NCBI GenBank assembly: GCA_041621915.1 | Contig: JBFJZV010000003.1 | Span: 1-33,626 of the forward strand | DNA length: 33,626 nucleotides | DNA from: Acidimicrobiia bacterium | GTDB taxonomy: Bacteria > Actinomycetota > Acidimicrobiia > Spongiisociales > JAOTWH01 | Direction of reading: 5' to 3' | In this document: positions 38 to 21,314 of the stretch, piece by piece | How positions within the stretch are numbered: position 1 is the stretch's first letter | How the letters are laid out: each line of letters begins with the position of its first letter | The notes under the pieces: model-generated | The model's input: the letters and a program-made list of their open reading frames with translations, nothing else | What the model was told of the DNA's origin: nothing | Database searches by the model: none | Translations under genes and position numbers: made by a program

Positions 38-125
38 CAGCACCTCCCATGACGCTACGTCACAGGATGCGCGCTCACCGCGCGTTAGCCAAGGACCCCC
101 ACCAACCTTTCAAGTCGGGGCACTA
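1..125 (-). mobile_element. End of a probable IS630-family insertion sequence (continues beyond the window start)
   Basis: Minus strand reads C-TA-GTGCCCCGACTTGAAAGGTTGG, a TA/CTAG target followed by an IS-like terminus. Codon style changes abruptly at 125, the TIR-ATPase gene is cut off here, and a GGAGG RBS plus a new ORF start lie inside the segment. Confidence 0.65.
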
Positions 126-864
126 GCTCGGACTCGAGCAGGTCGGGGTCGGCGAGGTCGGAGAGAGGCACGAGCCAGGCGCCGTCGTCGTACTGGTGCA
201 CCAGGCTCAACGCCGTCTCCCGGGCCAGCCGCGACTTGCCCACCCCGCCGGGCCCGGTCACGGTCACGAGCCGGGCGCGGGTCAGCTCGCCTTCCAGCTC
301 CTCGATCTCGTCGTCCCGCCCGATGAACTCGGTCAGCTCCCGGACCACGTTGGTGCGGTCCCCCTCGCCGGCGGCGCGCTCGGCGCGAGCCAGCGCCTGC
401 TCCACGGCCCGCACCAGGCCTGGCACGTGGTCCTTGAAGGGCTTGTTGCGGTCGATCGTCGTCGCCTGGAAGCTCGACAGCTTCCGCAGGTCGGGTGGGA
501 GCGCGTCGGGCGACGGCAGCGGGGCACCGTTCACGAGAACCGGGAGGACGGTCGCTGCCGGGATCGCCGACGCCACCTCCCGCCGGACCCAGTCGTCCGG
601 CACGTGCAAGCGGAGGTTGCCCTCGGCATCGGTGGTCGACGCCCAGTCAGGGCCGATGACCGCCACCAACACGCCCGGGTTGGCGAGGAAGTCGCGAAGC
701 ACGTCTGCCCACGCCGCTCCGGCGCCGATGTCCTCGATGTCGAAGAACACCCGCTCCTCACCGAAGTGCTCGGCCAGGCACTCGTGGATCTGCTCGGCGA
801 ATGCCCGGCTGTCGTCGCGGCGATAGCTGATGAAGATGCCGAGCACCAGGTGTCCCCCTTCCAC
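85..864 (-). CDS. TIR-domain (TIR_2-type) protein fused to the start of a STAND/NB-ARC-like ATPase; truncated by the IS at 125 (probable pseudogene)
   Basis: TIR motifs IFISYRRDD, VFFDIEDI and DWVRREV (putative catalytic Glu). These are followed by FIGRDDEI...LVTVTGPGGVGKSRLA (Walker A), with no Walker B. The last 12 aa (VPRLERLVGVLG) are read from IS sequence. The real start may be GTG at 846 (purine-rich RBS upstream). Confidence 0.85.
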   Translation of the reverse strand: MEGGHLVLGIFISYRRDDSRAFAEQIHECLAEHFGEERVFFDIEDIGAGAAWADVLRDFLANPGVLVAVIGPDWASTTDAEGNLRLHVPDDWVRREVASAIPAATVLPVLVNGAPLPSPDALPPDLRKLSSFQATTIDRNKPFKDHVPGLVRAVEQALARAERAAGEGDRTNVVRELTEFIGRDDEIEELEGELTRARLVTVTGPGGVGKSRLARETALSLVHQYDDGAWLVPLSDLADPDLLESELVPRLERLVGVLG

Positions 865-6701: not shown

Positions 6702-7348
6702 GCTGCGGCCGCCCACAGCTTGCCGCCGTCGAGGTCGTAGGCCCGGTCGACCAGGCCGCGCACCCGGGCGGGATCGTGGCTCACCAGCACGGCGGCGCCG
6801 CCGCGGGCCTGTGCCTGCTTGGCGAGCAGCGCCACGAGGTCGGCGGCGGCCGGGTCGAGCCCGGCGTGCGCCTCGTCGAGCAGCAACAGGTCGGGAGCGG
6901 TGAGCAGCACCCGGGCGAACTCGGCGCGCCGCTGCATGCCGTGGGAGCAGTGGTCGGCACGGCGGTGCCGGGCCCGGCCCAGCCCCACCTGGTCGAGCAC
7001 CTCGGCGACCCGCTCGGGGTCGTCGCCACGCACCCGTGCCACGAAGGCAGTGTTCTCGTGAAGGGTCAGCTCCGGGTAGAGCGACGGCTGGTGACCGACC
7101 AGCCCTATGCGGGGCCGCACCGCGAAGCGGTCCGGCTCGGCGAGGTCGGCCCCCAGGACGGTCCCGTTACCGGCCGACGGCGCCAGCAGGGTCGCCAGCA
7201 CCCGCAGCAGCGTCGACTTGCCGGACCCATTGGCGCCGTGGAGGCCGATCGCCTCGCCGGCTGCCACGACGAGGTCGAGGTCGCGCAGCACCGGCGTGTC
7301 GCCGAGGCGCACGCCCACGCCGCGCAGCTCGACGACGGGGGAAGTCAC
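6698..7348 (-). CDS. ccmA: Heme exporter ABC ATPase CcmA
   Basis: Walker A GANGSGKST, signature-like CSHGMQRR, Walker B LLLLDE and the H-switch VSHD. First gene of the ccm operon. Confidence 0.92.
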   Translation of the reverse strand: MTSPVVELRGVGVRLGDTPVLRDLDLVVAAGEAIGLHGANGSGKSTLLRVLATLLAPSAGNGTVLGADLAEPDRFAVRPRIGLVGHQPSLYPELTLHENTAFVARVRGDDPERVAEVLDQVGLGRARHRRADHCSHGMQRRAEFARVLLTAPDLLLLDEAHAGLDPAAADLVALLAKQAQARGGAAVLVSHDPARVRGLVDRAYDLDGGKLWAAAA

Positions 7349-7355
7349 GCCTCCG

Positions 7356-7361
7356 AGTGTA
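7356..7361 (-). promoter_or_regulatory. Putative -10 box (TACACT) of a leaderless ccmA transcript
   Basis: TANNNT lies 7 nt upstream of the GTG start, the typical geometry of an actinobacterial leaderless promoter. Confidence 0.55.
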
Positions 7362-7383
7362 CGGCGGGGCGGTTGGCAGGGGA

Positions 7384-7407
7384 CGGACCGGGAGACCCCC
7401 CGGTCCG
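7384..7407 (-). terminator. GC-rich hairpin downstream of the small secreted peptide gene
   Basis: Perfect 9-bp stem CGGACCGGG/CCCGGTCCG with a 6-nt loop, 20 nt after the stop at 7428. No U-tract. Confidence 0.55.
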
Positions 7408-7427
7408 CCTCGCGCCTCAGTGCCGGT

Positions 7428-7616
7428 TCAGCAGTTCGATGGGTCCGAGGTCACCGGGGTGTTGATGGTCCTGGTGAAGCCGGCGCCATCGTCCAACGAG
7501 AACGTGATCGTGGAAGGACGCCCGCAGTTCGCGCGTGCCGGGTCGGCAGCGGCGGGCACTGCGCCCAGCGCTGCAAGCAGCGTGAGCGCGGCGAGCGCGA
7601 GGAAGGTTCGTCGCAT
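7428..7616 (-). CDS. Small secreted protein (62 aa) with two cysteines, function unknown
   Basis: GGAAAGG RBS, signal peptide MRRTFLALAALTLLAALGAVPAAA, and mature part DPARANCGRPSTITFSLDDGAGFTRTINTPVTSDPSNC. A hairpin follows the stop. Confidence 0.7.
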   Translation of the reverse strand: MRRTFLALAALTLLAALGAVPAAADPARANCGRPSTITFSLDDGAGFTRTINTPVTSDPSNC

Positions 7617-7659
7617 GAGCAACACCTTTCCCTTGGACCGCGCTGTCTCGCCCGCGATG

Positions 7660-7735
7660 CTTCCCCCGCGGGGGAAGTGTGCCGAGGCGGAGCCTCGGGG
7701 AGAAGGGGCGCGAGTGCTCGGACCGCGCCGACGCG
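7660..7735 (-). repeat. REP-like palindromic repeat, copy B
   Basis: 34-nt core shared with 932-965, hairpin CCGAGGC-TCC-GCCTCGG, and the perfect 18-bp palindrome CTTCCCCCGCGGGGGAAG (7660-7677). Confidence 0.8.
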
Positions 7736-7802
7736 GCTTCCCAGCAGGCTGCGCTTGGCGAAACGCGGCATCCGGTCGTGGGTCGCACCCCCGAACATCT
7801 CG

Positions 7803-7856
7803 GCCCCCTCGTCTCGGCCCTGCGGGCCGAGACACTCCCCGGCGCGGCGGGGGGAG
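7803..7856 (+). repeat. REP-like palindromic repeat, copy C (inverted relative to B)
   Basis: CCCCCTC-[GTCTCGGCCC TGC GGGCCGAGAC]-ACTCCCC...GGGGAG, the same two-hairpin architecture as copies B and D. Confidence 0.7.
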
Positions 7857-7956
7857 AACGCGCATCGATCCAGCCGATAGCCGCGGATCCGGGGCGGACC
7901 GGGGACCGCAGATGTGCCTCCTGCCGGAACCCATGGCCCGGGAAGGCATCGCCGGC

Positions 7957-8946
7957 CTACTCGACCTCGGGCACCTCGTCGACCAGCCGCTCGCTGACGT
8001 AGTCGCCGGATGGCACGAAGCGGTAGTGCTCGAAGTCTTTGCGGAACTCGATGTTGACAGCCGCCCGCCCGTCCCGGTTCTTCTCGACGGTGAACACCAT
8101 CTCCTGCTTGAAGGCTTCGGCCCGCACCGGGTCGTAGGCCCGGTGGGCCTTCGCCACCGCCGGGTACTTCTCGTTGAGCAGCACCACTACGTCGGCCTCG
8201 TAGGCGAGCGCCGCGGAGCCCCGCAGGTGATGGAGCCGCAACCTTCGCGAATCGAGGCCCGCCTGATCGCCGGCCGCCACCGCCACCACCAGCGCCCCCC
8301 AGGTGAGGGCGATCTCCTTGAGCCCCTCGGCGACTGCGGTGACGCGCTGCTCCTCGTCGACGCCCGGGGCCGGGACCTTCTGGAGGTAGTCGACGAACAG
8401 CACCACTGGTCCGTTCGCCGGCGCCGCCACCATCTGCTCCAGCGCGACCAGGTCGGTGGACGTGCCCGAGGCGCGGACCAGCCACAGCTGGTTGGAGTAG
8501 GCGCTCACCTGCTCCCGCGCTGCGCCGAGCAGGTCGTCCTCGGCGACGGCGTCCTCCAGCGTCGCCCGCCCGGCGCTGACCTCGCGGAGCAGCCCCCGGA
8601 TGCGGCCCGAGGGCGACCCGTCGCCGGTGGGGATCAGCTCCCCGGCCTCCGCCAGCAGCAGCCGCGACACAAGCGACGCCTCGTCGTGCTCGTAGCACGC
8701 GTAGACGACGGTGGCCCCGCGGCGGGCGAGGTGGCGAGCCCACTGGAGCGTGAGGATGGTCTTCCCCGACCCGGGCAGCCCGCCGACGAGCGCCATGTCG
8801 CCGGTGCGCAGCCCGCCCTCCAGCACCCGGTCGAGCGGGTCGAACCCGGTCGGGAGCGTGGCCCAGTGCCGCCCGGTCCCAGCGTCGAGGCGTTGCAGCA
8901 CGCTGTCGAGGCTGTGTGCGGCGGCGGTCTCGGCGGTGATGGTCAT
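7957..8946 (-). CDS. DnaB-like (SF4, RecA-fold) helicase, C-terminal domain only
   Basis: PTGFDPLDRVLEGGL; H1 GGLPGSGKT; H1a YACYEH; H2 LFVDYLQ; H3 GLKEIA; H4 LRGSAALAYEADVV; KNRDG arginine finger. No DnaB N-terminal domain. Starts 13 nt after tadC with an AAGGAG RBS. Confidence 0.88.
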   Translation of the reverse strand: MTITAETAAAHSLDSVLQRLDAGTGRHWATLPTGFDPLDRVLEGGLRTGDMALVGGLPGSGKTILTLQWARHLARRGATVVYACYEHDEASLVSRLLLAEAGELIPTGDGSPSGRIRGLLREVSAGRATLEDAVAEDDLLGAAREQVSAYSNQLWLVRASGTSTDLVALEQMVAAPANGPVVLFVDYLQKVPAPGVDEEQRVTAVAEGLKEIALTWGALVVAVAAGDQAGLDSRRLRLHHLRGSAALAYEADVVVLLNEKYPAVAKAHRAYDPVRAEAFKQEMVFTVEKNRDGRAAVNIEFRKDFEHYRFVPSGDYVSERLVDEVPEVE

Positions 8947-8959
8947 GTGGTCGTCTCCT

Positions 8960-9862
8960 TCACGAGAGAGCTCGCCAGATCCGGATCGCAGCCGGTCCGA
9001 GCAGCACGATGAACAGGCTCGGGAAGATGCAGGACACCAACGGAAAGATGATCTTCACGGGCACTTTCAGCGCCCGCTCCTCGGCGCGGACGCGGCGCTT
9101 GTCCCGCAGCTCGGCTGACTGCACCCGCAACACCTGGGCGATCGGGAGGCCGTAGCCCTCCGCCTGGATCACCGCGAAGATGAACGTCCTCAGGTCGGGC
9201 ACCTCGGTGCGTTCGGCCAGGTTGCGCAGCGCCTCCTGGCGGCTGGCGCCGAGCTGCATCTCCTGGAGGGCGCGCATCAACTCGACGGCAAACGGTCCCC
9301 GCCCGGTGTGCGCGGCGCGGGCGATCGCGGCTTCGAAGGCGAGGCCCGCCTCCACCGCGATGGTGACCTGGTCGAGAGTGTCGGCCAGGGCCACCTCGAT
9401 CGCCGTCTGGCGCTCCTTGGCGCGCCCCCCGAGGATGAGGTCGGGCACGAAGTAGGCGCCGGCCGTCAGCGCCAGCGTCGTCAGCAGGAAGCTGAGACCG
9501 CGGTCGGCGCGCAGCGTCGACAGTGCTCCGAGCACGCCGCCGACCGCCACCATCGCCTTGACGGCGAGCACCCGCTCCAGCGGCCACGACCTCTCGGCGC
9601 CGGCCAGGGTGATCTTGCGCTCCAGCGTCGCTACCCACCCGGCCGGGGTGAAGCGGCGCATGCGGCGGGCGAGCGCCGCGCTGGCCGGCCGGAGGACGCG
9701 GTCGAGAGCGGAACGCTCGAGATCGACGCTCCGCAGGTCGGTGAAGGCGTCGCCGACCGAGGTGGCGGCCGCGGCGGCCCGGCCGGCCCACCACGACGCG
9801 ACCGCGAGCGGGATGGCCACCGCGATCGCGGCGGCAGCGACGATGACAGGGATGGGGAGCAT
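8960..9862 (-). CDS. tadC: Tad pilus platform protein TadC (T2SS F family)
   Basis: LADTLDQVTIAVEAGLAFE, LRVQSAELR and AEERALKVPVKIIFPL motifs; operon context. Confidence 0.93.
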   Translation of the reverse strand: MLPIPVIVAAAAIAVAIPLAVASWWAGRAAAAATSVGDAFTDLRSVDLERSALDRVLRPASAALARRMRRFTPAGWVATLERKITLAGAERSWPLERVLAVKAMVAVGGVLGALSTLRADRGLSFLLTTLALTAGAYFVPDLILGGRAKERQTAIEVALADTLDQVTIAVEAGLAFEAAIARAAHTGRGPFAVELMRALQEMQLGASRQEALRNLAERTEVPDLRTFIFAVIQAEGYGLPIAQVLRVQSAELRDKRRVRAEERALKVPVKIIFPLVSCIFPSLFIVLLGPAAIRIWRALS

Positions 9863-9874
9863 GTGGTGACCTCC

Positions 9875-11824
9875 TCAGAACCGTGGCTGGACGATCTTGC
9901 GCATCCACAAGCTGCCGACGACCATCAGGCCGGCGCCACCGCCGATCATGAAGCGGCCGACGACCGACCCGGTCAGCTCGGCCATGTAACCGGGGTTGGT
10001 GAACGAGATGGCGGTGCCGACGACCAGCGGCAGCCCGATCAGGATGAAGGCCGACAGCCGGCCCTCGGCGCTGAGGGCCTTGATGCGGCGGCGGATGCTC
10101 GCGCGGTCGCGGATCGTGGTGGAGACGATGTCGAGGATCTCCGACAGGTCGCCGCCCACTTGGCGATGGATCTCGATGGCCTCCACCACCCAGCGGAAGT
10201 CGTCGCTGTCCACCCGGTCGGCCAGCGCTCCGAGGGCGTCGCCGAGGTCCCGGCCGAGCTGGGTCTCCACGAGCAGCCGTGAGAACTCCTCCGACGTCGG
10301 CGGGAGCGCCTCCGACGCCGCCGCCTCGATCGCCTGCAACAGGCCGTAGCCGGCCCGGATGCTGCCGGCGATCAACTGGAGCGTGTCCCCGAGCTGCATG
10401 GCGAATGCGTCGCGACGGCGCTTGGCGCGCCACCCCAGCCACAACCGGGGCGCCGCGAACGACGCGGCCGCCAGGCCGAGGCCGAGCAGCGGGCCGCCGA
10501 CGTACGTGCCGGCGGCGAGCAGCCCGATGGCGCCGGCCGCCGCCACAAGCACGAACTCGCCAGGCCGGAGCCGGACTCCTGCCTGCTCGAGGCGGGCGTT
10601 GAGCGACTTGGCCCGCTCGTTGCGCTCCAGGGTCCTTTCGGCGAGGAGCGTGGCGGCGTTGGTGATGCCGCTCAGCACGCCGGTGCGCTCGTCGGACTGG
10701 CGGCGGCGGCGCAGGCGGCGGGCGGACTTGGCGACTTCGTCGCGTGATCCCTGTGCCAGCATCAGCAACCCCAGGAATGCCAGGAACACCAGCCCGGCGC
10801 CCACGGCCAGCGCCTCGGGCGTAGCGAGCGGCCCCGGGGCGGCCCGGGTGGTGGTGGGAGGGGCGGCCGGCAGGGTGGTGACCGGCGCCGCTGTGGTGGG
10901 CGGCGCCGGAGGAGGCGTCGTCGCGGCCGGGAACGCTGCCGGCGGCGGGGGCGCCGGGAGTCGGAGGTTCCCGACCGCGACGACGTCCACCCCGAGCCCC
11001 TCGGTGATCACCGACAGGTCGGTGAGGCCGTGGGCGGCGGAGGTGTAGGTGAGGCGGTACTGGTTGGACAGATCGGAGGCGATCGACGTGAAGATCGCGC
11101 CGAGGGCACCGGCGTCGCCGGCCTCCACCACCGTGCCCTCCGCCGCGGCGGCCAGCCGGTCGAGCGCGGCGAAGTCGGCCTCGGGACTGGCCAGCTGCAC
11201 GACGTACAGGCCGACGTCGGCTCCGAGGACGGCGACGATCGCCTCCTCGAGCGAGGCGCTGCTGACCGTGTCCCCCCCGTCGGACAGCAGCACGACCCAG
11301 GCGCGGCTCGTTTCCTCCGGGAACGCCCCGGATGCGGCGCTGAGCGCGTCGTAGAGGGCGGTCTCACCGCCCGCCTCCAGGCTCCCGACGGCGGCCAGCA
11401 CGGTGGCGGTGTCCGTGGTGAAGTCGGCGTGCAGCGCCGGCGAGCTGCCGAAGCCCAGCACCGCGATCTCCACCCCGGCGGGCAGCGCTTCGACGAAGCT
11501 GCGGGCGGCGTCCTGGGCGGCCACCAGCGGCTCGCCCTTCATCGACCCGGACGTGTCCAGCGCCAGTACCACCTGCAGCGACTCGGCAGTCAGCTTCTCA
11601 AGAGTGGCCGAGATCGGCTCGCCATCCCCCTCGACGACCGAGAACCCCTGCACCGGCCCACCGCCACGAACGGTGACGGACATCTCCACGACGGGATACG
11701 CCGACGTCTCCGCGGAATCGATACGCAGCTCGGCTTCTTGAGCGGCGGCCGGGATGGTCGCGAGCAGGAGTGCCAGGGCGACCACCGCCGACGCCGCCAG
11801 GCGTTGGCGGTTTGAGCGATTCAT
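9875..11824 (-). CDS. tadB: TadB platform protein with N-terminal signal peptide, VWA domain and Pro/Thr-rich linker
   Basis: VWA MIDAS DTSGSM...TALYDA...LLSDG. C-terminal T2SSF domain with [17 protein letters not shown] and LSAEGRLSA. Confidence 0.92.
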
Positions 11825-13215
11825 GGTGCGAACCCGGCCGCAGCCAGCGAGGGAGCACCGAAGACGCCCGCAGGGATGTTGATGCCGAGGTCCTTGAGGT
11901 GTTCGCTGAACGCCGGGCGGATGCCGGTGGGGCGAACATGGCCGCGGAACCGGCCGTCCTCGTCGAGCCCCGCCGAGAAGTCGAACTCGAAGATGTCCTG
12001 GAGCGTGACCACCTGGCCCTCCATCCCCACCACTTCGGAGATGTGGGTGATGCGGCGACTGCCGTCCCGAAGGCGGCCGAGCTGGATGATCACGTCGAGC
12101 GCAGACGAGATCTGCTCGCGGATCGCCCGCACCGGCAGCTCCACCCCGGCCATGAGCACCATCGTCTCCAGCCGGGAGATCGCGTCGCGGGGGCTGTTGG
12201 CGTGCACGGTGGACAGCGAGCCCTCGTGGCCGGTGTTCATCGCCTGGAGCATGTCGAGAGCCTCGGCGCCGCGGACCTCACCGACGACGATGCGGTCGGG
12301 GCGCATCCGCAGGGCGTTGCGCACCAGGTCGCGGATGCGGACCTCGCCCTTGCCTTCGATGTTCGGCGGGCGGCTCTCCAGGCGTACCACGTGCTTCTGG
12401 TGAAGCTGCAGCTCGACCGCGTCCTCGATGGTGACGATGCGCTGGTCCTCGGGGATGAACGACGACAGCACGTTGAGCAGCGTCGTCTTGCCCGAGCCGG
12501 TGCCGCCGCTGATGAGGGCGTTCAGGCGGCCCTCCACGCACGCCTGGAGCAGGTCGGCCACCTCACTCGACATCGTGCCCATCGCCACCAGGTCGTCCAC
12601 CTGGTAGGGGTCCTTGGAGAACAGGCGGATCGTGAGGACCGGGCCATCGACGGCGAGCGGCGGGATCACCGCGTTCACCCGCGAGCCGTCCGGGAGGCGG
12701 GCGTCCACCATCGGCGAAGACTCGTCGATGCGGCGCCCCACCTGGGAGACGATCCGCTCGATGACGCGCCGCAGGTGGGCGCGGCTCTGGAAGCGGTCCT
12801 CGGTCTCGTGGAGGCGGCCGTTGCGCTCCACGAAGATCGACTCCTCCGCGTTGACCATGATCTCGGTGACGCCGGGATCGTCGAGGTACTTCTGGATCGG
12901 CCCGTAGCCGAGGACGTCGTCCCGCACCTCGGCCACGAGCTGGTCCCGCTGGGCGACGGTGAGGGGGGCGCCTTCTCCGTCCAGGGCGGTGCCCAGCTCT
13001 TCCATGACGAAGGCCTGGAGCTGCTCCTCGGTGAGCGACGAGTCGTAGAGCCGGCCGCCGAGGCGGGCGAACAGCGCTGCCTGGGCGCGCTGCTTGACGC
13101 CCGCGAGCGGATCGGTGTTGGCCGGGGCGGGCAACGGCGCCGCGGGGGACGCGGCCGCCGGCCGGGTGTGCTCCGGAGTGGCCCCGGTGGCCTTGAGGCG
13201 GTCGCTGAGCTTCAT
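11821..13215 (-). CDS. cpaF: Tad pilus assembly ATPase CpaF/TadA
   Basis: [32 protein letters not shown] and [19 protein letters not shown] 13215 has a GGAGG RBS and overlaps the upstream stop. Confidence 0.96.
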
Positions 13216-14405
13216 CGTTCCCTCCTGAGGTTGAAGAGGCCGCCGGAACGGGCCGGGGCCTGGATCTCGGCGAAGCGGCCCACCACCTCCATCAATCGGC
13301 GGGTGGCTTCGGAGCGGGGCGCCGCCGTCAGCAGCGGCGTTCCCTGGTTCATGGACAGCGGCATGCTGCGGGTGCTGGGCAGCTCGACGTCGACGGGCCG
13401 GCCCACGATGCGCTCCACGTCGGCCGGGTCGAGGCCGACGTCGCTGTCGGCCCGGTTGAGCACGATGTGGCGGCTGGCCTCCGTCATGTCGAGCCGGTCG
13501 AGGGCTTCGAGCACCTTGCGCATGCCGCGGGCGCCGGCCACGGCCATGTCGCACACCAGCACGATGTCAGTCGACAGCTCCAGCGCGCCGAGGGTGTGCT
13601 CGGTGAGGCCGGCGGACGTGTCGACCACGACGAACGAGAACTCGCTGGCCAGCAGGTCGATCACCCGCCGGGCGCGGCTCTCGGCCACCTCCTCCCCTGC
13701 GGCGGGGGAGTCGGGAGCGGCCAGGACGAAGAGGCCGCTGTCGTGGCGGGTGAGGAACACCTTGAGGGTGGCCAGGTCGAGCCCGGCGCTGCGCGTGGCG
13801 TCGGCGATGGTGTGGCGGGTCTCTAGGCCCAGTGCAGTGGGCACGTCGCCGAACTGCAGGTCGAGGTCGACGAGCACCGCAGCGCCCGGACGGGTCTGGG
13901 CCAGTCCCACGCTGAGGTTCGTGGCCACTGCGGTCTTCCCCGCGCCGCCCTTGGGGGCCAGCACGGTGATGACCCGCCCGCGCCGCCCCGACGGTGCGCC
14001 GGGAGCGTCGGGCGTTCCCACCCGGCTGGCCCGGTGAAGGGCGCGGTCGATGATGCGGCGCACCTCGTGGTCCGGCATGTCGGCGGCGATCACGTCGCGC
14101 ACCCCCGACTGCAGGGCCCGCCGCCACAGCTCTGGCGACGGCTCGGCCGCCACCAGCACCGTGATATCGGGCGCCTCCCGATCGACGAGGCCCGCCAGGT
14201 ACAGCGCTTCGTCCAAGGGCAGGTCGGGGCCGAGCACCACCACGGCGGGGCGGTCGGTGGTCAGGTCGAGCAGCGCGCCGTCGGCGTCGGCGACCAACGC
14301 GGCGTCCTGCCAGCGGCGCAGGTCGCCGTTGAGGGAGCCACCGAAGGCGCGCCGCACCCGCTGCTCGAAGGCGAGGCTGCCGGTGGCGAGGACGATGCGG
14401 CTCAT
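13212..14405 (-). CDS. cpaE: CpaE/TadZ (receiver-like domain plus MinD/ParA-type ATPase)
   Basis: Deviant Walker A PKGGAGKT, LVDLDLQFGDV and FVVVDT, with a degenerate N-terminal receiver domain. Confidence 0.9.
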   Translation of the reverse strand: MSRIVLATGSLAFEQRVRRAFGGSLNGDLRRWQDAALVADADGALLDLTTDRPAVVVLGPDLPLDEALYLAGLVDREAPDITVLVAAEPSPELWRRALQSGVRDVIAADMPDHEVRRIIDRALHRASRVGTPDAPGAPSGRRGRVITVLAPKGGAGKTAVATNLSVGLAQTRPGAAVLVDLDLQFGDVPTALGLETRHTIADATRSAGLDLATLKVFLTRHDSGLFVLAAPDSPAAGEEVAESRARRVIDLLASEFSFVVVDTSAGLTEHTLGALELSTDIVLVCDMAVAGARGMRKVLEALDRLDMTEASRHIVLNRADSDVGLDPADVERIVGRPVDVELPSTRSMPLSMNQGTPLLTAAPRSEATRRLMEVVGRFAEIQAPARSGGLFNLRRER

Positions 14406-15241
14406 CGGTAGATCGTCCCCCGGGTCTGGATCGCCGTGCCGCTCTCGTCGGCCGAGTCGGGCTCGGCGGCCAGCCACACGGTGCCGTGCTCCGCCGCGAA
14501 GACGACCTTCTCGGCGTCGGGGGCGGTCACCGCCAGCGTCACCAGCAGGTTGCCGGTGGGCGCCAGCTCGAGGTTGCTCTGCTCGACGTCGGGGGTGGCG
14601 GTCTCGGCGGGCAGCCGCTCGATTTGGACGTTGGTGACCAGCACCTTGTGCAGCACGACGTGGGTCGAGTTCGGGGTGCGGAGCTGCTTGGCAGGCTGCG
14701 ACGGCTCGTCAGGGGGCGTCTCCAGCACGATCTCCACCGGCTGGTCCTCGGGCGCCCCGCCCGGCTCCGCCGCGTTGACGTCGAAGGGCTCGAAGGAGGC
14801 GAGCACCCCGACGGTGCTGCCGGGTCGCAGCCGTCCGCCGACCGCCCGCTCGGGCGACAGCGAGACCGTCACCTGCAGCAGCCCGTCGGGAACCTCGATC
14901 TTGGCCTCGGTCTCGAGATCGTTGACCGAGACGAAGCGGGCGGCCAGCAGCTGCTCGCCCGCGGCGAGGTCGACGGCCGCGACCCCGTCGCCGAGATCGG
15001 CCAGGTCGGCCACCGCGCCGTCGGCACGAACCTTGGCGGGCACCAGGGTCGTCTTGACCAGGTCGCCGAGGTCGGCGGCAGCCGTACCGCGGTCGACGTG
15101 CTCGGCGACGATCAGCACGGGCACCACCTCCTCCCCGGCGGCGGCGCGTTGATCGGCGCCGTTGACGTATGCGAGCAGGACGAACGTCCCCGCGGCGGCG
15201 AGCGCCACCGAGGCTATCAATCCCAGGACCCTCCGACTCAT
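14402..15241 (-). CDS. cpaB: Flp pilus assembly protein CpaB/RcpC
   Basis: N-terminal TM helix, SAF-like region, AVGGRLRPGSTVGV, and LVTLAVTAPDAEKVVFA. Confidence 0.9.
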   Translation of the reverse strand: MSRRVLGLIASVALAAAGTFVLLAYVNGADQRAAAGEEVVPVLIVAEHVDRGTAAADLGDLVKTTLVPAKVRADGAVADLADLGDGVAAVDLAAGEQLLAARFVSVNDLETEAKIEVPDGLLQVTVSLSPERAVGGRLRPGSTVGVLASFEPFDVNAAEPGGAPEDQPVEIVLETPPDEPSQPAKQLRTPNSTHVVLHKVLVTNVQIERLPAETATPDVEQSNLELAPTGNLLVTLAVTAPDAEKVVFAAEHGTVWLAAEPDSADESGTAIQTRGTIYR

Positions 15242-15278
15242 GTGTCCTTCTCCTTCTTGGTGTGTGGTTGTTAGGTGG

Positions 15279-16259
15279 TCATCCCGTGAGCTTCACGATG
15301 ACGATCCCCCGGTCCTCCCCGCCGATGTCGCCCATCGAGACCGTCGTGTTGGTGAAGTAGCCGGCAATGCAGCGGTCCGAGCCGCTACAGGGCGGCGCAC
15401 CCGACGCGGGCTGCTTGTACCCCCCGCCGAAGTTGAATCCCGTGATGTAGAGCGCCCCGAAGCCCGCCACCCTGTACGTGGCGTTGCTACCCGTGTCGTC
15501 GATGTCGTCGAAGAACGGGATGGGCACCGCGGTGTGCATCAGCGACTCGATGTCGGGTGGATCGCAGTCGCTGGGCGGCGACGCCCCGGGGTCGATGCTG
15601 ACCCATTTGCCGACGGTGACGGAAGCACTGCAGTCGCCGGCCGTCCCGAGCCACCCGAACCCGCCCGGCATGTCCTGCCCCGACGGCGACGAGTGGCAGC
15701 TCTCCGCCTTGCCGTGGAAGAAGATGACGGACTCGGGGCCCGAGAACGGCGGGCCAGGCTGAACGCTCGGCGCGAACTTGGCCCACTCGCAGTCCGAGAA
15801 GATCAGCGGCAGCGTGCGCGGCAGCCCGCTCGGGTATCCCCAAGCGGCGCTGGCGGTGGCACCCACGGTGGCGCCGTCGAACCCGAGGACGCCAGCGAAA
15901 TAGGAGGGAAGCAGGGTGTCGCCGCTGGCGGCGTCGATGGTGCTGACCTCCACGGTCACGGTCTGGCCGAGCACGTCGAGGGTCACGTCGTCGACGGCGG
16001 CCGCGCCGTCGTGAGCGTTGGCGTCGGCGTAGCCGTCGGCGGTGCCCTCTGCGGTCACGGGGTTGCAGACCACCGCGTCGCCCTCTGCGCATGCCTGGGC
16101 GATCCCCAGCGCGGCCGCGTCGGCCCCGCTCTGTAGCTCACGGCGCTCGGCGTAGAGCGCCCCGACGTCGACGGCGAACGCCACCATGCCGATGAGCACA
16201 GTCCCGGCGATCGCCACTGTGACGGCAGCCATCCCTCGGTCGTCGGTCAGCCGCCGCAT
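15279..16259 (-). CDS. tadG: TadG-like minor pilin with a Cys-rich C-terminal domain
   Basis: DDRG|MAAV prepilin-like N-terminus and the AVDVG...ELQSGADAAAL Tad motif. Confidence 0.85.
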   Translation of the reverse strand: MRRLTDDRGMAAVTVAIAGTVLIGMVAFAVDVGALYAERRELQSGADAAALGIAQACAEGDAVVCNPVTAEGTADGYADANAHDGAAAVDDVTLDVLGQTVTVEVSTIDAASGDTLLPSYFAGVLGFDGATVGATASAAWGYPSGLPRTLPLIFSDCEWAKFAPSVQPGPPFSGPESVIFFHGKAESCHSSPSGQDMPGGFGWLGTAGDCSASVTVGKWVSIDPGASPPSDCDPPDIESLMHTAVPIPFFDDIDDTGSNATYRVAGFGALYITGFNFGGGYKQPASGAPPCSGSDRCIAGYFTNTTVSMGDIGGEDRGIVIVKLTG

Positions 16260-16615
16260 CGCATCACCCCGGTTCCGGTGAGCGTGATGGTCTGGCTGCC
16301 GAGCAGCGGGATGTCGTAGGTGAACGGGTACGAGAGGCTCAACGTGGCGTCGTAGCCGGCGGTGCACGACGACGCCATCACGGTGAGGTCGGTGGGGTCG
16401 ATCGAGGTGGCGGCGTTGACGGCCTTGGTCGAGGCCGCCGAAGGATCTTGCGTGATGGCCAGCTCCCTCACCCCTTCGCGAGCGGCGTGGGTGAGCGTGA
16501 CCTGGGCGTTGTAGGCCCGCCCGAACTCGACCACGCCGAACACCAGCAGCACCAGAATCGGCAGCACCAGCGCCGATTCCACGAGTGTGGCCCCGCGCTC
16601 TCGTGGGCGGGTCAT
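16247..16615 (-). CDS. tadE: TadE-like pseudopilin
   Basis: RERG|ATLVESALVLP and the VEFG...LTHAAREGVR motif. Confidence 0.9.
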   Translation of the reverse strand: MTRPRERGATLVESALVLPILVLLVFGVVEFGRAYNAQVTLTHAAREGVRELAITQDPSAASTKAVNAATSIDPTDLTVMASSCTAGYDATLSLSYPFTYDIPLLGSQTITLTGTGVMRCGG

Positions 16616-16887
16616 GCCAGGGCATCCAGCAGGGCGGGGTTGTCGACGAGGTCGGTGACGCTGATCCCGAACGCGGTGACGGCCAGCAGCGCGACCAGGG
16701 CCACCAGGGCGACCATCAGGCCGTACTCGACCATGGTGGCGCCGGCGTCGGAGAGCGCGCCCGCGCTCGCCGAGTCCCCGAGCGCAGCGAGGGGGAGGGG
16801 GACGGTTTCGGGTGCGTTGCGCGCGGAAGCCGCCACCGCCCTCGTGGCGGCCCGTGAGGGCTGGGTGACGGCTTCCACGTGCTCCAT
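16612..16887 (-). CDS. flp: Flp family type IVb pilin 2 (unusually long leader; start uncertain)
   Basis: Flp motif G|ATMVEYGLMVALVALVALLAV. The stop overlaps the tadE start. Confidence 0.82.
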   Translation of the reverse strand: MEHVEAVTQPSRAATRAVAASARNAPETVPLPLAALGDSASAGALSDAGATMVEYGLMVALVALVALLAVTAFGISVTDLVDNPALLDALA

Positions 16888-16890
16888 CGG

Positions 16891-17067
16891 TCAGGCGATG
16901 GCGCCGGCGATCTCGTTGAACTTGCCGGACACGTTCACGCCGAGGGCGGTGACGGCCAGCAGCGCGACCACCGCGACGAGCGCGACCATCAGGCCGTACT
17001 CGACCATCGTGGCCCCGTCGTCCCGGCGCAGCCGGGTGGCCAGGTAGTTGGCGTAGTGCAGCAACAT
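16891..17067 (-). CDS. flp: Flp family type IVb pilin 1 (likely the major pilin, 58 aa)
   Basis: AAGGAGAG RBS and RRDDG|ATMVEYGLMVALVAVVALLAVTALG. Confidence 0.93.
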   Translation of the reverse strand: MLLHYANYLATRLRRDDGATMVEYGLMVALVAVVALLAVTALGVNVSGKFNEIAGAIA

Positions 17068-17167: not shown

Positions 17168-17194
17168 AACGCGACAGCCGGTAACGTGCCGGCC

Positions 17195-19024
17195 GTGGTG
17201 AGACGCGTACTCGGTGGGATGGTGGTGCTCGGCGCGGTCGTGGTGGCGGTCTCCGCCGCCCTCCCGGCGCAGGCTGCCGCCCCCGAGACCGTCGGCGCAG
17301 TCGATCCGGCGACGGCGGCGTGGTCCCTGTCGGACGGCGGCACTGGCGTCGCCAGGTTCACCTACGGCAACCCCGGCGACCTGCCGTTCGTGGGCGACTG
17401 GGACTGCGACGGTGACGACACCCCAGGCCTCTACCGCCAGTCCGACGGGTTCGTGTACCTACGCAACAGCAACTCGATCGGGATCGCCGACATCGAGTTC
17501 TTCTTCGGCGATCCCGGCGACGTGCCGCTGGCCGGGGACTTCGACGGGGACGGCTGCGACACGGTGTCGCTCTATCGCCGCTCCGAGGGGCGCGTGTACA
17601 TCGTCAACCGGCTGGGCGACGGGCAGGGCGGGCTGGGCGCAGCCGAGTTCGCGTACACGTTCGGCAATCCCGGCGACGACCCCTTTGTCGGCGACTTCGA
17701 CGGCGACGGCGTCGACGAGGTCGGCCTGCGGCGGCGCAGCACCGGGCTCGCGTACTTGCGGCTGGTCCACCAGTTCGGCCGGGCCGACGTCGAGTTCACC
17801 TACGGGGACCCCGGCGATCTGGTGGTGGCCGGCGACTGGGACGGCGACGGCGGCGACACCGTCGGGCTGTTCCGCCCCTCGGCCGCCACGTTCTTCCTCA
17901 GCAACCGTAACGCTGCCGGCATCGCCGATCGGGTGGTGCCGTTCGGCACGGCCGGCATGCTGCCGGTCGCCGGGGACTTCGGTGCGCTCGCCACCACCAG
18001 CTCATTGGCGCTGCAGACCGTCGCCGACGACCTGGCTTCTCCGGTGTTCCTCGACGCCCCACCCGGCGATGCGCGGGTGTTCGTGGTGGAGCGCGGGGGG
18101 ACGATCCGGATCCTGGGCCGCCAAGCGCCGTTCCTCGACATCGCCGACCGCGTCAGCGTCGCCGGGGAAGGGGGCTTGCTGAGCATGGCCTTCCATCCCG
18201 GCTTCGGCGCGAACGGGCGCTTCTTCGTCTTCTACACGGACGACGCGGGCGACATCGTCGTCGCCGAGTTCGCAGCTGTCGGGGACACCGCCGACGCCGC
18301 CTCGGGGCGCGTGGTGCTGACCGTCGACGCGCCGGCCACCCATCACTACGGGGGGATGATCGCCTTCGGGCCCGACGAATTCCTGTGGATCGCCGTGGGC
18401 GACGGGCGGGAGCCGGACAGCGGCCAGGACCCGGGGGACCTGCTGGCCGGGCTGCTGCGCATCGACGTGGACGGCCCTGCGCTCTACGACGTGCCGCCCG
18501 GGAACCCGTTCGTCGGCGGCGGTGGCGCGGCCGAGGTGTGGGCGTACGGCTTGCGCAACCCGTGGCGGTTCGCGTTTGACGGCGGCCTCGTCTACGTCGC
18601 CGACGTGGGAGAGGACGGCTGGGAGGAGGTCGATGTCGCGGCGGCGTCGACCGGAGGCATCAACTACGGGTGGAGTGTCATGGAGGGCGACGAGTGCTTC
18701 GACCCGCCCACCGGCTGCAGCACGGCCGGGTTGCGCCGGCCGGTGCTGGTGTACGGGCGGGCGGACGGCTGTTCGATCATCGGCGGCTACGTCTACCGGG
18801 GCGCGGCGCTGCCTCAGCTCGCCGGCCACTACTTCTACGGCGACCTGTGCTCGGGCATCCTCCGCAGCTTCCGGCACTCGGGCGGCCAGGCCGTCGACCG
18901 GCGAGACTGGACGGCGGCGGTCGGCGGTGTGCCGGGCATCGTGTCGTTCGGGACGGACGGCTTCGGGGAGCTGTACGTCGTCCAGCTCGGGGGGCGGGTG
19001 TCCAAGCTCGTCCCCGGCGGCTGA
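17195..19024 (+). CDS. Secreted protein with FG-GAP/VCBS-like repeats and a PQQ-dependent sugar dehydrogenase (GSDH/sGDH-type beta-propeller)
   Basis: Signal peptide, repeated GDWDGDG/GDFDGDG units, then GEGGLLSMAFHP, HYGGMIAFGPD, AYGLRNPWRF and NYGW. TAACGT at 17182-17187 favours a leaderless GTG start at 17195 over 17186. Confidence 0.9.
   Translation: MVRRVLGGMVVLGAVVVAVSAALPAQAAAPETVGAVDPATAAWSLSDGGTGVARFTYGNPGDLPFVGDWDCDGDDTPGLYRQSDGFVYLRNSNSIGIADIEFFFGDPGDVPLAGDFDGDGCDTVSLYRRSEGRVYIVNRLGDGQGGLGAAEFAYTFGNPGDDPFVGDFDGDGVDEVGLRRRSTGLAYLRLVHQFGRADVEFTYGDPGDLVVAGDWDGDGGDTVGLFRPSAATFFLSNRNAAGIADRVVPFGTAGMLPVAGDFGALATTSSLALQTVADDLASPVFLDAPPGDARVFVVERGGTIRILGRQAPFLDIADRVSVAGEGGLLSMAFHPGFGANGRFFVFYTDDAGDIVVAEFAAVGDTADAASGRVVLTVDAPATHHYGGMIAFGPDEFLWIAVGDGREPDSGQDPGDLLAGLLRIDVDGPALYDVPPGNPFVGGGGAAEVWAYGLRNPWRFAFDGGLVYVADVGEDGWEEVDVAAASTGGINYGWSVMEGDECFDPPTGCSTAGLRRPVLVYGRADGCSIIGGYVYRGAALPQLAGHYFYGDLCSGILRSFRHSGGQAVDRRDWTAAVGGVPGIVSFGTDGFGELYVVQLGGRVSKLVPGG
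17363..17980 (+). repeat. About 4.5 intragenic FG-GAP-like repeats
   Basis: (Y/F)G(N/D)PGDxxxxGD(W/F)DxDGxD(T/E)xxLxR occurs four times, plus a partial fifth copy. Confidence 0.85.
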
Positions 19025-19696: not shown

Positions 19697-20401
19697 TTAA
19701 CGCAACCAACCCGACCGGCGCGCCATCGCCACCGCGGCGAGCTGCGACGTGGCGTTGAGCTTGACGAGGATGGCCCGGATCTGGGACCGCACGGTGTCGA
19801 TCGACACGTAGCTGCGCGCGGCGATCTCGGCGGCCCGCTGCCCGTTGGCCAGCGCCCGCAGCACCTCCCGCTCCCGGCGGGTCAGGCGTTCGAAGGGCTC
19901 GAGCCGGGTGCGCTCCTCGAGCTTCTTCATCCGCAGCTCGGTGAGCAGCGCGTGGCGCTCGTCGGCGGACATCGCGGTGCCTCGTTCGGCCACCGTCTCG
20001 ATAGCGGCCAGGACCTTCTCGAACGGCTCGCTCTTGCGGAGGATGCCCGCCGCGCCTGCCGCCAAGCACTCGGCGTGCGCGAGCCGGTCGCGGCTGCCGG
20101 TGAGGACCAGGACCGTGGCGCCGGCGTCGACGAGCGCCGGTATGAGGTCCTGCCCGTGCCCGAGCCGGCCGAGGTCGAGGTCGAGAAAGACGATGGTGGG
20201 AGAGAAGCGGGCGACCGCGGCCTGGACTGCGTCGGCGTCGGGGCCGCTGCACGCCTCCGCTTCGATTCCTTCGCCGTGCAGCGCCTCCACGAGGATCTGC
20301 CCGAGCAGCTCGTGGTCGTCCACCAGCAGCACCCGCTGACCAGCGGCGGGGCTGCCGGTCAGCGGCGGCGGGTCGGCGACGACGACCAGCTCAGGCAGCA
20401 C
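19697..20401 (-). CDS. NarL/LuxR-family response regulator
   Basis: VLLVDDH, phospho-Asp in IVFLD, conserved Thr and Lys, and the HTH LTRREREVL...IAARSYVSIDTVRSQ. Confidence 0.95.
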   Translation of the reverse strand: MLPELVVVADPPPLTGSPAAGQRVLLVDDHELLGQILVEALHGEGIEAEACSGPDADAVQAAVARFSPTIVFLDLDLGRLGHGQDLIPALVDAGATVLVLTGSRDRLAHAECLAAGAAGILRKSEPFEKVLAAIETVAERGTAMSADERHALLTELRMKKLEERTRLEPFERLTRREREVLRALANGQRAAEIAARSYVSIDTVRSQIRAILVKLNATSQLAAVAMARRSGWLR

Positions 20402-21314
20402 GGCACACTTCTGCGGTCGTGCGGGGAAGGGTCAGCTCGAACGCCGCTCCGGCCCCCGCCGAGGGCACTGTGGTGAGCGTGCCGCCCTGGGTCGCGGCGA
20501 GTCGGCGAGCGATGTAGAGGCCGAGCCCGGTGCCCGAGGCCGAACCTTTGACTCCTCGGTCGAAGATCTTGCCGGCGAGCGCCGCGTCGATGCCGGGGCC
20601 GCGGTCCGCCACGCGTACGACGGCGGTGCGGCCCCGGAGCTCGGTGGAAACCGTCACTGGCGCGCCGGGCGCGTGCCGGTGGGCATTGTCGAGCAGGTTC
20701 CGCACGATCTCGGCGACCACCTCGGGCGAGCCGTGGGCGGTGGTGGCCGGGTCGATGCCGGCGCGCACCTCCTGGCCGCGCAGCCGCGCGGCTTCGATGG
20801 CGGGCTGCAGCGGAAGCTCGAGCGAGAAGTCCGCCGGGCGGCGGCCCGCCGCGCCACCATCGAGGAGCCGGTGGAGCGACGCCACTTCGGCGCGGATGAC
20901 CTCGACCGCGGTGTCCCAGCTCAGATCGCCGTGGTCGCGCCGGCGGGCGGCCGCATACACGGCTAGCTCGATGGTCGATAGCGCCGAGCGGGCTTCATGG
21001 GCGCGCTCCTCCCACTCGGCCTCTGCCGCCTCCGACTGGCGCCGCCACCGGTGGGCCTCCCGGGCCCAGCGCAGGGCGGTCGCCGCCTGGTGCCGGGTGG
21101 AGCGCTCGAGGACGGCGGCGCCGCCCAGCAGCGCGAAGAGCAGCGTGAGCAACCGCAGCGTCCCCACCACCGTCGGTCGCAGATCGAGGTCCGGGCGTAG
21201 TGAGGCGCCCGCCACCTCTGCGGCGACGAACGCCGCGAGCGTCAGCGCCACTGCCAGCAGGAACCATTGGTCCCGCCAGGCCGCCGATCTACGTCGCGGC
21301 TCGCCGATGTCCAT
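20391..21314 (-). CDS. Sensor histidine kinase (two TM helices, HisKA-like plus HATPase_c)
   Basis: H-box AHEARSAL, N-box NLLDNA, DRGPGI, F-box IFDRG and GTGLGL. GGAGGAG RBS. Confidence 0.93.
   Translation of the reverse strand: MDIGEPRRRSAAWRDQWFLLAVALTLAAFVAAEVAGASLRPDLDLRPTVVGTLRLLTLLFALLGGAAVLERSTRHQAATALRWAREAHRWRRQSEAAEAEWEERAHEARSALSTIELAVYAAARRRDHGDLSWDTAVEVIRAEVASLHRLLDGGAAGRRPADFSLELPLQPAIEAARLRGQEVRAGIDPATTAHGSPEVVAEIVRNLLDNAHRHAPGAPVTVSTELRGRTAVVRVADRGPGIDAALAGKIFDRGVKGSASGTGLGLYIARRLAATQGGTLTTVPSAGAGAAFELTLPRTTAEVCRAA

Follow-up and report, generated by a model that had tools for sequence, protein, structure and literature searches.

A DnaB-derived ATPase encoded with one subtype of Tad pilus in Actinomycetota and Chloroflexota

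The last gene of a Tad/Flp pilus operon in an Acidimicrobiia bacterium encodes a 329-aa RecA-fold ATPase that resembles the C-terminal domain of the replicative helicase DnaB. The operon lies in a stretch of 33,626 nucleotides (nt), referred to here as the window, on contig C3 (JBFJZV010000003.1) of a 3.08-Mb, 271-contig assembly with a completeness of 74.6%. Genomic comparisons strongly support assigning this ATPase to the Tad system rather than regarding it as the replicative helicase. The function favoured here, with a probability of roughly 40%, is to serve the Tad motor as an accessory ring ATPase, with the KaiC-like protein ArlH of archaea as its analogue. What is new is a Tad system with a second, helicase-derived ATPase.

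The operon consists of ten tightly packed genes on the minus strand, running from position 17067 down to 7957 in the order flp, flp, tadE-like, tadG, cpaB, cpaE, cpaF, VWA-tadB, tadC and the ATPase gene, with successive intergenic gaps of 3, -4, -13, 37, -4, -4, -4, 12 and 13 nt. Its Tad/Flp identity is given by Pfam matches over cut-off for the first Flp pilin, the T2SSE protein, two T2SSF proteins, the ParA-type CpaE and RcpC. The ATPase gene (7957..8946, minus strand) is separated from tadC by a 13-nt spacer (8947..8959, minus strand), which includes an AGGAG ribosome-binding site 8 nt before the ATPase ATG. An earlier note on this DNA had described a Tad operon running with short gaps and overlaps into a 329-aa ATPase gene, 13 nt after tadC and with its own ribosome-binding site, and both the gaps and the AGGAG were read from the sequence as it had them.

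Linkage to Tad genes was examined in 250 genomes of the class other than the window's own, drawn evenly, in which relatives of the ATPase were called at E<=1e-30 and CpaF-like proteins at E<=1e-80. The ATPase family is present in 15 of the 250 and a CpaF-like gene in 165; G197 and G228, which are flagged as unpublished, are counted in the latter tally. CpaF is present in each of the 15 genomes that carry the family. The coordinates place 15 of the 17 family copies 2-4 kb downstream of a CpaF match, with contig and strand shared; the remaining two, of which one is close to the start of a contig and one is broken, are not judgeable. The CpaFs linked to the ATPase are those most like that of the window (63-72% identity), and the ATPase therefore marks a subtype of Tad system.

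Linkage was also assessed in the best 80 of 398 genome loci. Among these, tadB/tadC is directly upstream on the same strand in 43 and tad genes are nearby in another arrangement in 8. In 21, an upstream flank of 1 kb or more gave no tad hit, and in 8 the flank is too short for a judgement. Unsupervised clustering of the neighbours within 4.5 kb of 134 loci returned TadB/C at 51 loci and CpaF at 50. Four gene orders were found. In Actinomycetota the ATPase gene follows tadC and is usually the last gene. A second order, cpaF, ATPase and then a NERD-domain or TadE-like gene, was seen among 75 metagenome loci fetched with full-length forms as query, and its 13 rows form one clade with 99% support. 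In four related Chloroflexota loci the order is tadC, ATPase and prepilin peptidase (peptidase A24), and in the fourth arrangement the ATPase gene is followed by a gene for a membrane protein, designated X500, convergent on the tad genes. Copies without tad linkage are nested inside tad-linked clades in the trees, and CpaF is encoded elsewhere in the genomes of 5/5 such copies. The linkage is far beyond chance and has been kept through rearrangements, a statement made without a formal p-value as the genomes are related. The earlier note had held the ATPase to be tied to the Tad system and unlikely to be the replicative helicase, and had made this depend on enrichment of homologues beside cpaF/tadBC; with that enrichment found, in 15/15 carriers with CpaF, 15/17 copies near cpaF and four gene orders, the claim is strongly supported.

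The genome of the window keeps a further copy. The other strong match to the DnaB C-terminal domain (PF03796), on contig C108, is the last gene of a second tad operon (L092: 4114-11381, minus strand) with cpaB, cpaE, cpaF, VWA-tadB, tadC and the ATPase gene in the same order as in the window. Identity is 54% between the two ATPases and 69% between the two CpaFs. Contig C108 ends inside or just upstream of cpaB, and no pilin genes are seen on it. The C108 protein was considered as the dnaB product of this genome and rejected as a tad-linked paralogue. The DnaB N-terminal domain was found only at the last bases of contig C60, which indicates that a true dnaB exists and was cut by the assembly. 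The separate full-length dnaB that the earlier note had proposed to confirm is thus represented by this N-terminal domain and not by a full-length gene. In two related genomes, canonical dnaB frames of 885 aa (L175, G001:C98) and 943 aa (L179, G065:C115) span the whole DnaB model, and their lengths suggest intein insertions.

The only full-length Pfam match of the 329-aa protein is PF03796 (78.7 bits, cut-off 27). The DnaB N-terminal domain (PF00772) was not found in it by Pfam, and only ~30 residues stand ahead of the ATPase core. A motif map was obtained from an alignment with four canonical DnaBs of related genomes rather than from a residue-level alignment to solved DnaB chains. In this alignment Walker A, the H1a glutamate E86, Walker B (D186-Y-x-Q), D252 and the K289/R291 finger are kept, as are the arginines R235 and R242 of the 'KRP...LRES' loop, R242 being the H4 loop arginine, and K62, E86, D186, K289, R291 and G293 are invariant across 25 family members. 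The H3 motif 'SQLNR' is replaced by 'AAGDQ' in the 329-aa protein and by 'AADR' in the family, the glutamine being missing from every member aligned. In superfamily 4 (SF4) helicases this glutamine couples ATP to DNA. The earlier note's list of retained elements (H1, H1a, H2, H4 and the KxR finger) and of lost ones (the primase-binding N-terminal domain and the H3 glutamine) agrees with the alignment and with the lack of a PF00772 hit.

Further features set the family apart. Relative to DnaB, inserts are present at residues 103-135 and ~259-270, and the C-terminus is a conserved 17-aa acidic tail (ERLxDERxxxE-COOH) that ends in a nearly invariant glutamate. The basic stretch RRLRLHH and the following H4 'LRGS' (RRLRLHHLRGS) are among the most conserved parts of the family; the residues equivalent to this H4 loop and basic stretch reportedly contact single-stranded DNA (ssDNA) in the structure of Bst DnaB with ssDNA. 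The protein thus shares with the SF4 proteins of the DnaB family (Bst DnaB, SPP1 G40P, T4 gp41 and T7 gp4) a RecA-type C-terminal domain with linker helix, and Walker A, the H1a glutamate, the DYxQ of Walker B, the H4 loop arginine and the KxR finger align. It differs from them in the missing N-terminal collar/primase-binding domain, the altered H3 motif ('AADR'), the inserts, the acidic tail and its location in pilus operons rather than with replication genes. The ATPase site is complete, including the trans-acting finger; this argues for an oligomeric ring, which the protein would be expected to form.

An AlphaFold2 monomer model was built from a 25-sequence alignment (predicted local distance difference test 75, predicted template modelling score 0.78) and compared with known structures using Foldseek and VIA-align. 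The VIA Z scores were 25.6 for the SPP1 G40P ATPase domain, 24.9 for Bst DnaB, 21.6 for T7 gp4 and 21.1 for RadA, and fell from the DnaB/G40P range of 23-25.6 to 20.3 for KaiC and 19.6 for the archaeal KaiC-like protein Sso2452. The structural match to DnaB begins at the linker helix, with model residues 9-318 matched to G40P 153-436. The ATPase motifs are intact and the fold is of the DnaB type. Residues 227-245, which hold the RRLRLHHLRGS segment, are a low-confidence loop in the model and are probably flexible.

Curated profiles for the obvious relatives all score the protein well below their cut-offs. The DnaB equivalog model TIGR00665 gave 61.4 bits against 385.25, the RadA model TIGR00416 gave 35.4 bits against 403 with only residues 31-87 aligned, and archaeal KaiC models gave at most 37.6 bits against ~248. 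The KaiC family PF06745 matched with 36.8 bits, confined to the Walker A region (residues 32-94), and the NCBIfam model for the SPI-7-type island replicative DNA helicase gave 41.4 bits against 655. An anti-phage defence protein was also considered and rejected, the PADLOC library having returned only mad8 at 20.2 bits, a P-loop-level match. As judged by these profiles, the 329-aa protein is not a replicative DnaB equivalog, a KaiC/ArlH protein or a RadA, and represents a DnaB-derived family of its own.

With E<=0.001 as the limit, a word-indexed search returned over 1,196 proteins, each ~330 aa long. In an exhaustive profile search, 297 cluster representatives (50% identity) were found at E<=1e-30 versus 21,077 at E<=1e-10, and by this measure the family is discrete and set apart from generic DnaB. 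Going by record titles, the best 80 of the 398 genome loci belong to Actinomycetota (Acidimicrobiia, Nitriliruptorales and others) and Chloroflexota (Anaerolineae, Thermomicrobiales and Limnocylindria), and all 80 come from uncultured organisms. Records label the proteins as 'DnaB-like helicase C-terminal domain-containing protein' or, wrongly, as 'replicative DNA helicase'. The search of representatives also returned N-terminally extended members of 402-524 aa. Two of these (P0156 and P0159) combine PF00772 with all of the family signatures, including the tail, and score only 108-148 bits on TIGR00665. Fused forms of at least 673 aa were not found at E<=1e-20, which is weak evidence and leaves lengths of 576-673 aa outside that search. 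The tree has a very long branch between the family and canonical DnaB. Rooted on canonical DnaB, the deep branches are without resolution and the full-length clade is not placed as basal, so that one loss of the N-terminal domain is indistinguishable from several. No description of the family was found in the open full-text literature, the search of which did not extend to subscription journals and supplementary files, and the ATPase is probably an undescribed part of the pilus machine.

The favoured reading is that the 329-aa protein would be a component dedicated to a single subtype of the secretin-less Tad/Flp pilus. It descends from a DnaB-type (SF4) helicase and has retained the linker helix and the complete RecA-type ATPase domain, whereas the N-terminal collar/primase-binding domain is lost in most lineages. 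A DnaB-like ring of this kind may dock on the cytoplasmic side of the pilus motor, at the CpaF hexamer or the TadB/TadC platform, for which the acidic C-terminal tail and the insert at 103-135 are candidate docking elements, and ATP binding or hydrolysis may gate pilus assembly or bias it against retraction. The parallel would be with the KaiC-like ArlH, which accompanies ArlI and ArlJ in the archaellum, and with the KaiC-family ATPases of archaeal type IV pilus operons. Such archaeal systems are the presumed source of the Tad system.

Several observations are consistent with a role in the motor. The operons that the gene is packed with, or lies inside, otherwise encode nothing but parts of the pilus machine. 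In both the bacterial and the archaeal systems a second RecA-superfamily ring-type ATPase stands beside a VirB11/ArlI/CpaF-type ATPase and a TadC/ArlJ-type platform protein. According to PMC4858521, the type IV pilus operons of archaea repeatedly encode KaiC-family ATPases, which are proposed regulators, as well as vWA proteins; ArlH, itself a KaiC homologue, is a regulator of ArlI (PMC12488501). In the archaeal and the bacterial systems alike, vWA proteins are found alongside such ATPases; here the VWA domain is fused to TadB. The 329-aa protein lies outside the ArlH/KaiC family, and the likeness is one of context, not of descent. Since it descends from DnaB, any ArlH-like role would be convergent.

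Other results weigh against this reading. Contact with CpaF, TadB/C or CpaE was neither shown nor predicted; a complex fold of CpaF (residues 40-464) with the ATPase scored 0.00 against a mark of 0.32 and, run with no controls, speaks neither for nor against binding. The DnaB DNA-loop arginines, R235 and R242, are conserved, and a pure motor regulator would not obviously need them. In fold and sequence the protein is nearer to true helicases than to KaiC/ArlH-like proteins, and the FlaH model NF004723 gave 17.8 bits against a cut-off of 194. The gene is missing from 150 of the 165 CpaF-positive genomes and is therefore not a general requirement of Tad motors. Finally, members that keep PF00772 (~500 aa) are found directly after a ComF-like gene, and not after tad genes, in 5 of the 9 loci with such members.

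A possible but somewhat less probable alternative is that the ring moves nucleic acid, acting as an ssDNA translocase through which the Tad pilus is coupled to the uptake or export of DNA. During uptake its part would be that of ComFA at the ComEC channel or that of RadA/ComM afterwards, and in export or conjugation-like transfer that of a coupling protein. A Tad pilus with a DnaB-derived ssDNA pump, joined in some lineages by a ComF-like or NERD partner, might conceivably form a self-contained machine for DNA uptake or transfer in monoderm Actinomycetota and Chloroflexota. It is likewise only tentatively suggested that the ring would then fill the place of ComFA in Firmicutes or of the coupling protein in conjugation. 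DnaB ancestry, a DnaB-type fold with linker helix that is closest to true helicases, the retained loop arginines and the highly conserved RRLRLHH and 'LRGS' segments are all as expected of such a motor, while the H3 glutamine is replaced in every aligned member. DnaB_C-only proteins of like size are common in phages, according to the Atlas, which is taken as a lead only. Neither a DNA-binding accessory domain nor a fusion of at least 673 aa was found, although this counts as weak evidence.

The genomic surroundings of the gene are similarly divided on DNA transport. The five ComF-adjacent loci (L097:4954-5715, L101:6992-7765, L096, L099 and L149) have a ComF-like gene with DZR_2 (double zinc ribbon) and Pribosyltran domains, whose best NCBIfam matches, GntX and comF, are both under cut-off. 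A full-length member beside a ComF-like gene recalls the comFA-comFC pairing, ComFA being an SF2 DEAD-box protein of unrelated fold. However, these loci belong to one clade of 4-5 related loci in which the ComF-like gene is itself preceded by a SAM hydroxide adenosyltransferase (SAM_HAT) gene, and with this further shared synteny the adjacency may have arisen in one event. In 7 loci the ATPase gene is followed by one for a NERD-domain protein, among which the nuclease motif is not conserved, and in 6 it is preceded by a phage-type integrase gene. ComEC is present in 10/10 carrier genomes but lies far from the ATPase locus, and its near-universal occurrence makes its presence in carriers uninformative. 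In the genome of the window a ComEC-like match is on contig C70, ComF gave only weak PRT-like matches and DprA was not found, blanks that say little at 74.6% completeness. The co-occurrence with competence genes proposed by the earlier note was therefore seen for ComEC, which is unlinked and near-universal, and not for DprA in this incomplete genome.

Two statements on which the earlier note had built are in print: tad genes are needed for transformation in Micrococcus luteus (PMC4322843), and the DnaB-fold helicase RadA promotes recombination of transforming DNA (PMC5512693). The M. luteus tad clusters include no gene of the present kind, 'helicase' and 'DnaB' occurring 0 times in PMC4322843, and only 15 of the 165 CpaF-positive genomes have one. 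RadA/Sms is a ring helicase with a DnaB-type RecA fold (PMC5512693) and, like the 329-aa protein, does not have the DnaB N-terminal domain, whereas the zinc-finger and Lon-like domains are missing here, where only DnaB_C was found. The nearest NCBIfam model of the window's CpaF is TIGR03819, 'TadA family conjugal transfer-associated ATPase', which belongs to the actinobacterial 'helicase/secretion neighbourhood' loci (TIGR03815-TIGR03819). Those loci are likewise Tad-like, found in Actinomycetota and near a helicase-family gene, but CpaF (TIGR03819, 356.6 against 373.15) and CpaE (TIGR03815, 59.0 against 154.45) both fall under cut-off, and the helicase there is presumably a DEAH-box SF2 protein and not a DnaB derivative. 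Of the mechanisms offered by the earlier note, an ssDNA translocase or branch-migration motor for Tad-mediated DNA uptake is possible, and the fallback reading, in which the pilus has gained a regulatory or retraction ATPase, has at least equal likelihood.

It is improbable that the ATPase is instead a KaiC-like autokinase or switch that acts on tad expression through a neighbouring two-component system. A histidine kinase and a LuxR-type response regulator are encoded 2.6 kb upstream of flp on the strand of the operon (19697-21314, minus strand), LuxR-type regulators are near the ATPase gene in 9 loci, and at L050 and L058 a similar pair lies directly before a tad-unlinked ATPase gene, the L050 regulator being 42% identical to that of the window. 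The regulators proposed for archaeal type IV pilus loci are also of the KaiC family (PMC4858521). On the other hand, LuxR-type two-component pairs are common and 42% identity is no proof of orthology. Neither the arginine finger nor the catalytic glutamate of a translocating ring varies, the match to PF06745 is limited to the Walker A region, and neither a KaiB-like nor another output partner was seen.

Still less probable is a stand-alone RecA-fold ATPase, for instance of DNA repair, that stays at the ends of tad operons by inherited synteny. The position of the gene as usually the last in Actinomycetota operons would fit such a neighbour, as would the 21 of 80 genome loci and 25 of 141 tree rows in which the flank has no tad gene and the neighbours form a varied, unrelated set. 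Against this, the linkage extends across two phyla and four gene orders, intra-operon positions included, both paralogous operons of the genome keep a copy, the gene was never seen in a CpaF-less genome (15/15 and 5/5), and the 13-nt spacer holds only a ribosome-binding site. The least probable explanation, a replication or mobilisation helicase of an integrated element that carries tad genes, could draw on the tyrosine recombinases of six soil-metagenome loci, an IS110 transposase beside one ATPase-less operon and the occurrence of DnaB-type helicases on genomic islands (the SPI-7-type match being weak), but is at odds with the window's even G+C (69-77%), its housekeeping neighbourhood of cytochrome c maturation (ccm) genes downstream, a two-component pair and histidine-biosynthesis (his) genes upstream, and hisS, in which no integrase and no primase were found, with the weak P-loop matches that alone were given by PADLOC, and with the lack of replication partner genes among the recurrent neighbours.

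The remaining genes of the operon are those of a Tad machine. The first pilin gene (16891..17067, minus strand) encodes a 58-aa Flp protein (PF04964, 44.4 bits, cut-off 32.2) with the processing motif G/ATMVEY. The second (16612..16887, minus strand), a 91-aa open reading frame (ORF), has the same motif and a match of 30.5 bits, which is under the cut-off of 32.2. The leader before the motif is 49 residues from the first ATG in the second pilin versus 18 in the first, and the true start of the second is uncertain. The next gene (16247..16615, minus strand) was called as a TadE-like minor pilin or pseudopilin from its hydrophobic N-terminal pilin-like motif alone, Pfam giving nothing at E<=0.01, and a homologue occupies the same position at locus L005. 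It is followed by genes for a TadG-like protein (15279..16259, minus strand; PF13400, 37.1 bits), CpaB/RcpC (14402..15241, minus strand; PF16976, 43.6 bits, and TIGR03177, 57.1 bits, under the cut-off of 71), a CpaE/TadZ-type ParA/MinD-like ATPase (13212..14405, minus strand) with P-loop matches to AAA_31, ParA and CbiA, and the CpaF/TadA secretion ATPase (11821..13215, minus strand; T2SSE, 234.8 bits).

The two platform proteins complete the operon upstream of the ATPase gene. TadB (9875..11824, minus strand) has T2SSF at residues 482-605 and VWA_2 at residues 85-183, its N-terminal fusion being made up of a signal-peptide-like segment, the VWA domain and a proline-rich linker. The fusion recurs in the paralogous operon and at many of the linked loci, and ATPase-less operons from the class have it too. 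TadC (8960..9862, minus strand) matches T2SSF with 65.1 bits. In the Pfam scan, which covered the operon genes, neither the prepilin peptidase TadV nor the secretin RcpA/CpaC of diderm systems was found. A G+C-rich hairpin of 11 pairs without a U tract (7810..7834, minus strand), located 122 nt past the ATPase stop and present in both the minimum free energy and centroid folds, is a possible operon end; the folding of the entire region is no better than that of shuffled sequences (z 0.01), and a scan of 7300-9100 for consensus promoters and terminators found 0 of either.

Besides TadB/C and CpaF, the recurrent neighbours of the ATPase gene were X500, directly downstream, at 19 loci, a large unknown protein on the opposite strand at 12, LuxR-type regulators at 9, a NERD-domain membrane protein, directly downstream, at 7, an upstream tyrosine recombinase at 6, a downstream TadE-like gene and an upstream ComF-like gene at 5 each, and a downstream prepilin peptidase at 4. 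X500 is a polytopic membrane protein of ~450-510 aa without a Pfam family (L130:2873-4372, L012:9007-10422 and 17 more). Homologues of X500 lie directly after tadC in five ATPase-less tad operons of the class (L181:3564-4913 and four others; hhalign probability 99.8%), and this homology makes X500 a tad gene in its own right, one that takes the place next after tadC where the ATPase gene is missing. An Atlas lead to GT-C-type glycosyltransferases (0.92) was obtained for it, and X500 may be a Tad accessory protein without a name so far, perhaps a glycosyltransferase that acts on pilin.

The NERD neighbour (~620 aa; L115:9113-11074 and six further loci with the cpaF-ATPase arrangement) has an N-terminal NERD domain and C-terminal membrane segments. 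It was considered as an active nuclease and rejected, the D...(D/E)xK positions not being conserved in the 7 sequences. The tyrosine recombinase is of phage type; at L129, L130, L134, L143, L148 and L160 its gene immediately precedes the ATPase gene and has the same orientation. Three other ORFs lie near the operon or elsewhere in the window. Divergent from flp, a gene at 17186-19024 (plus strand) encodes a 612-aa secreted protein with repeated 'GDxDGDG' segments and a glucose/sorbosone dehydrogenase-type beta-propeller (PF07995). A 62-aa ORF at 7428-7616 (minus strand), ~340 nt downstream of the ATPase gene, has a signal-peptide-like start, two cysteines and no family match. An ORF at 85-864 (minus strand) joins a TIR domain to the beginning of an AAA_16 (STAND-type) ATPase, an architecture reminiscent of defence or signalling proteins; its domain annotation is partial.

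Tad pili have been described with a single ATPase, CpaF, that powers both extension and retraction (PMC11300603). If a second, helicase-derived ring ATPase takes part, a whole subtype of Tad machines would work or be controlled differently, and the ATPase would be a bacterial, independently recruited counterpart of the ArlH/KaiC-type partner ATPases of archaea. If the ring instead moves nucleic acid, its gene would be the first in a Tad operon to code for a DNA motor and would offer a handle on Tad-dependent transformation, or on an unknown transfer route, in high-G+C Gram-positives. Under either reading, the ~297 clusters (50% identity) of this family are a defined and testable target.

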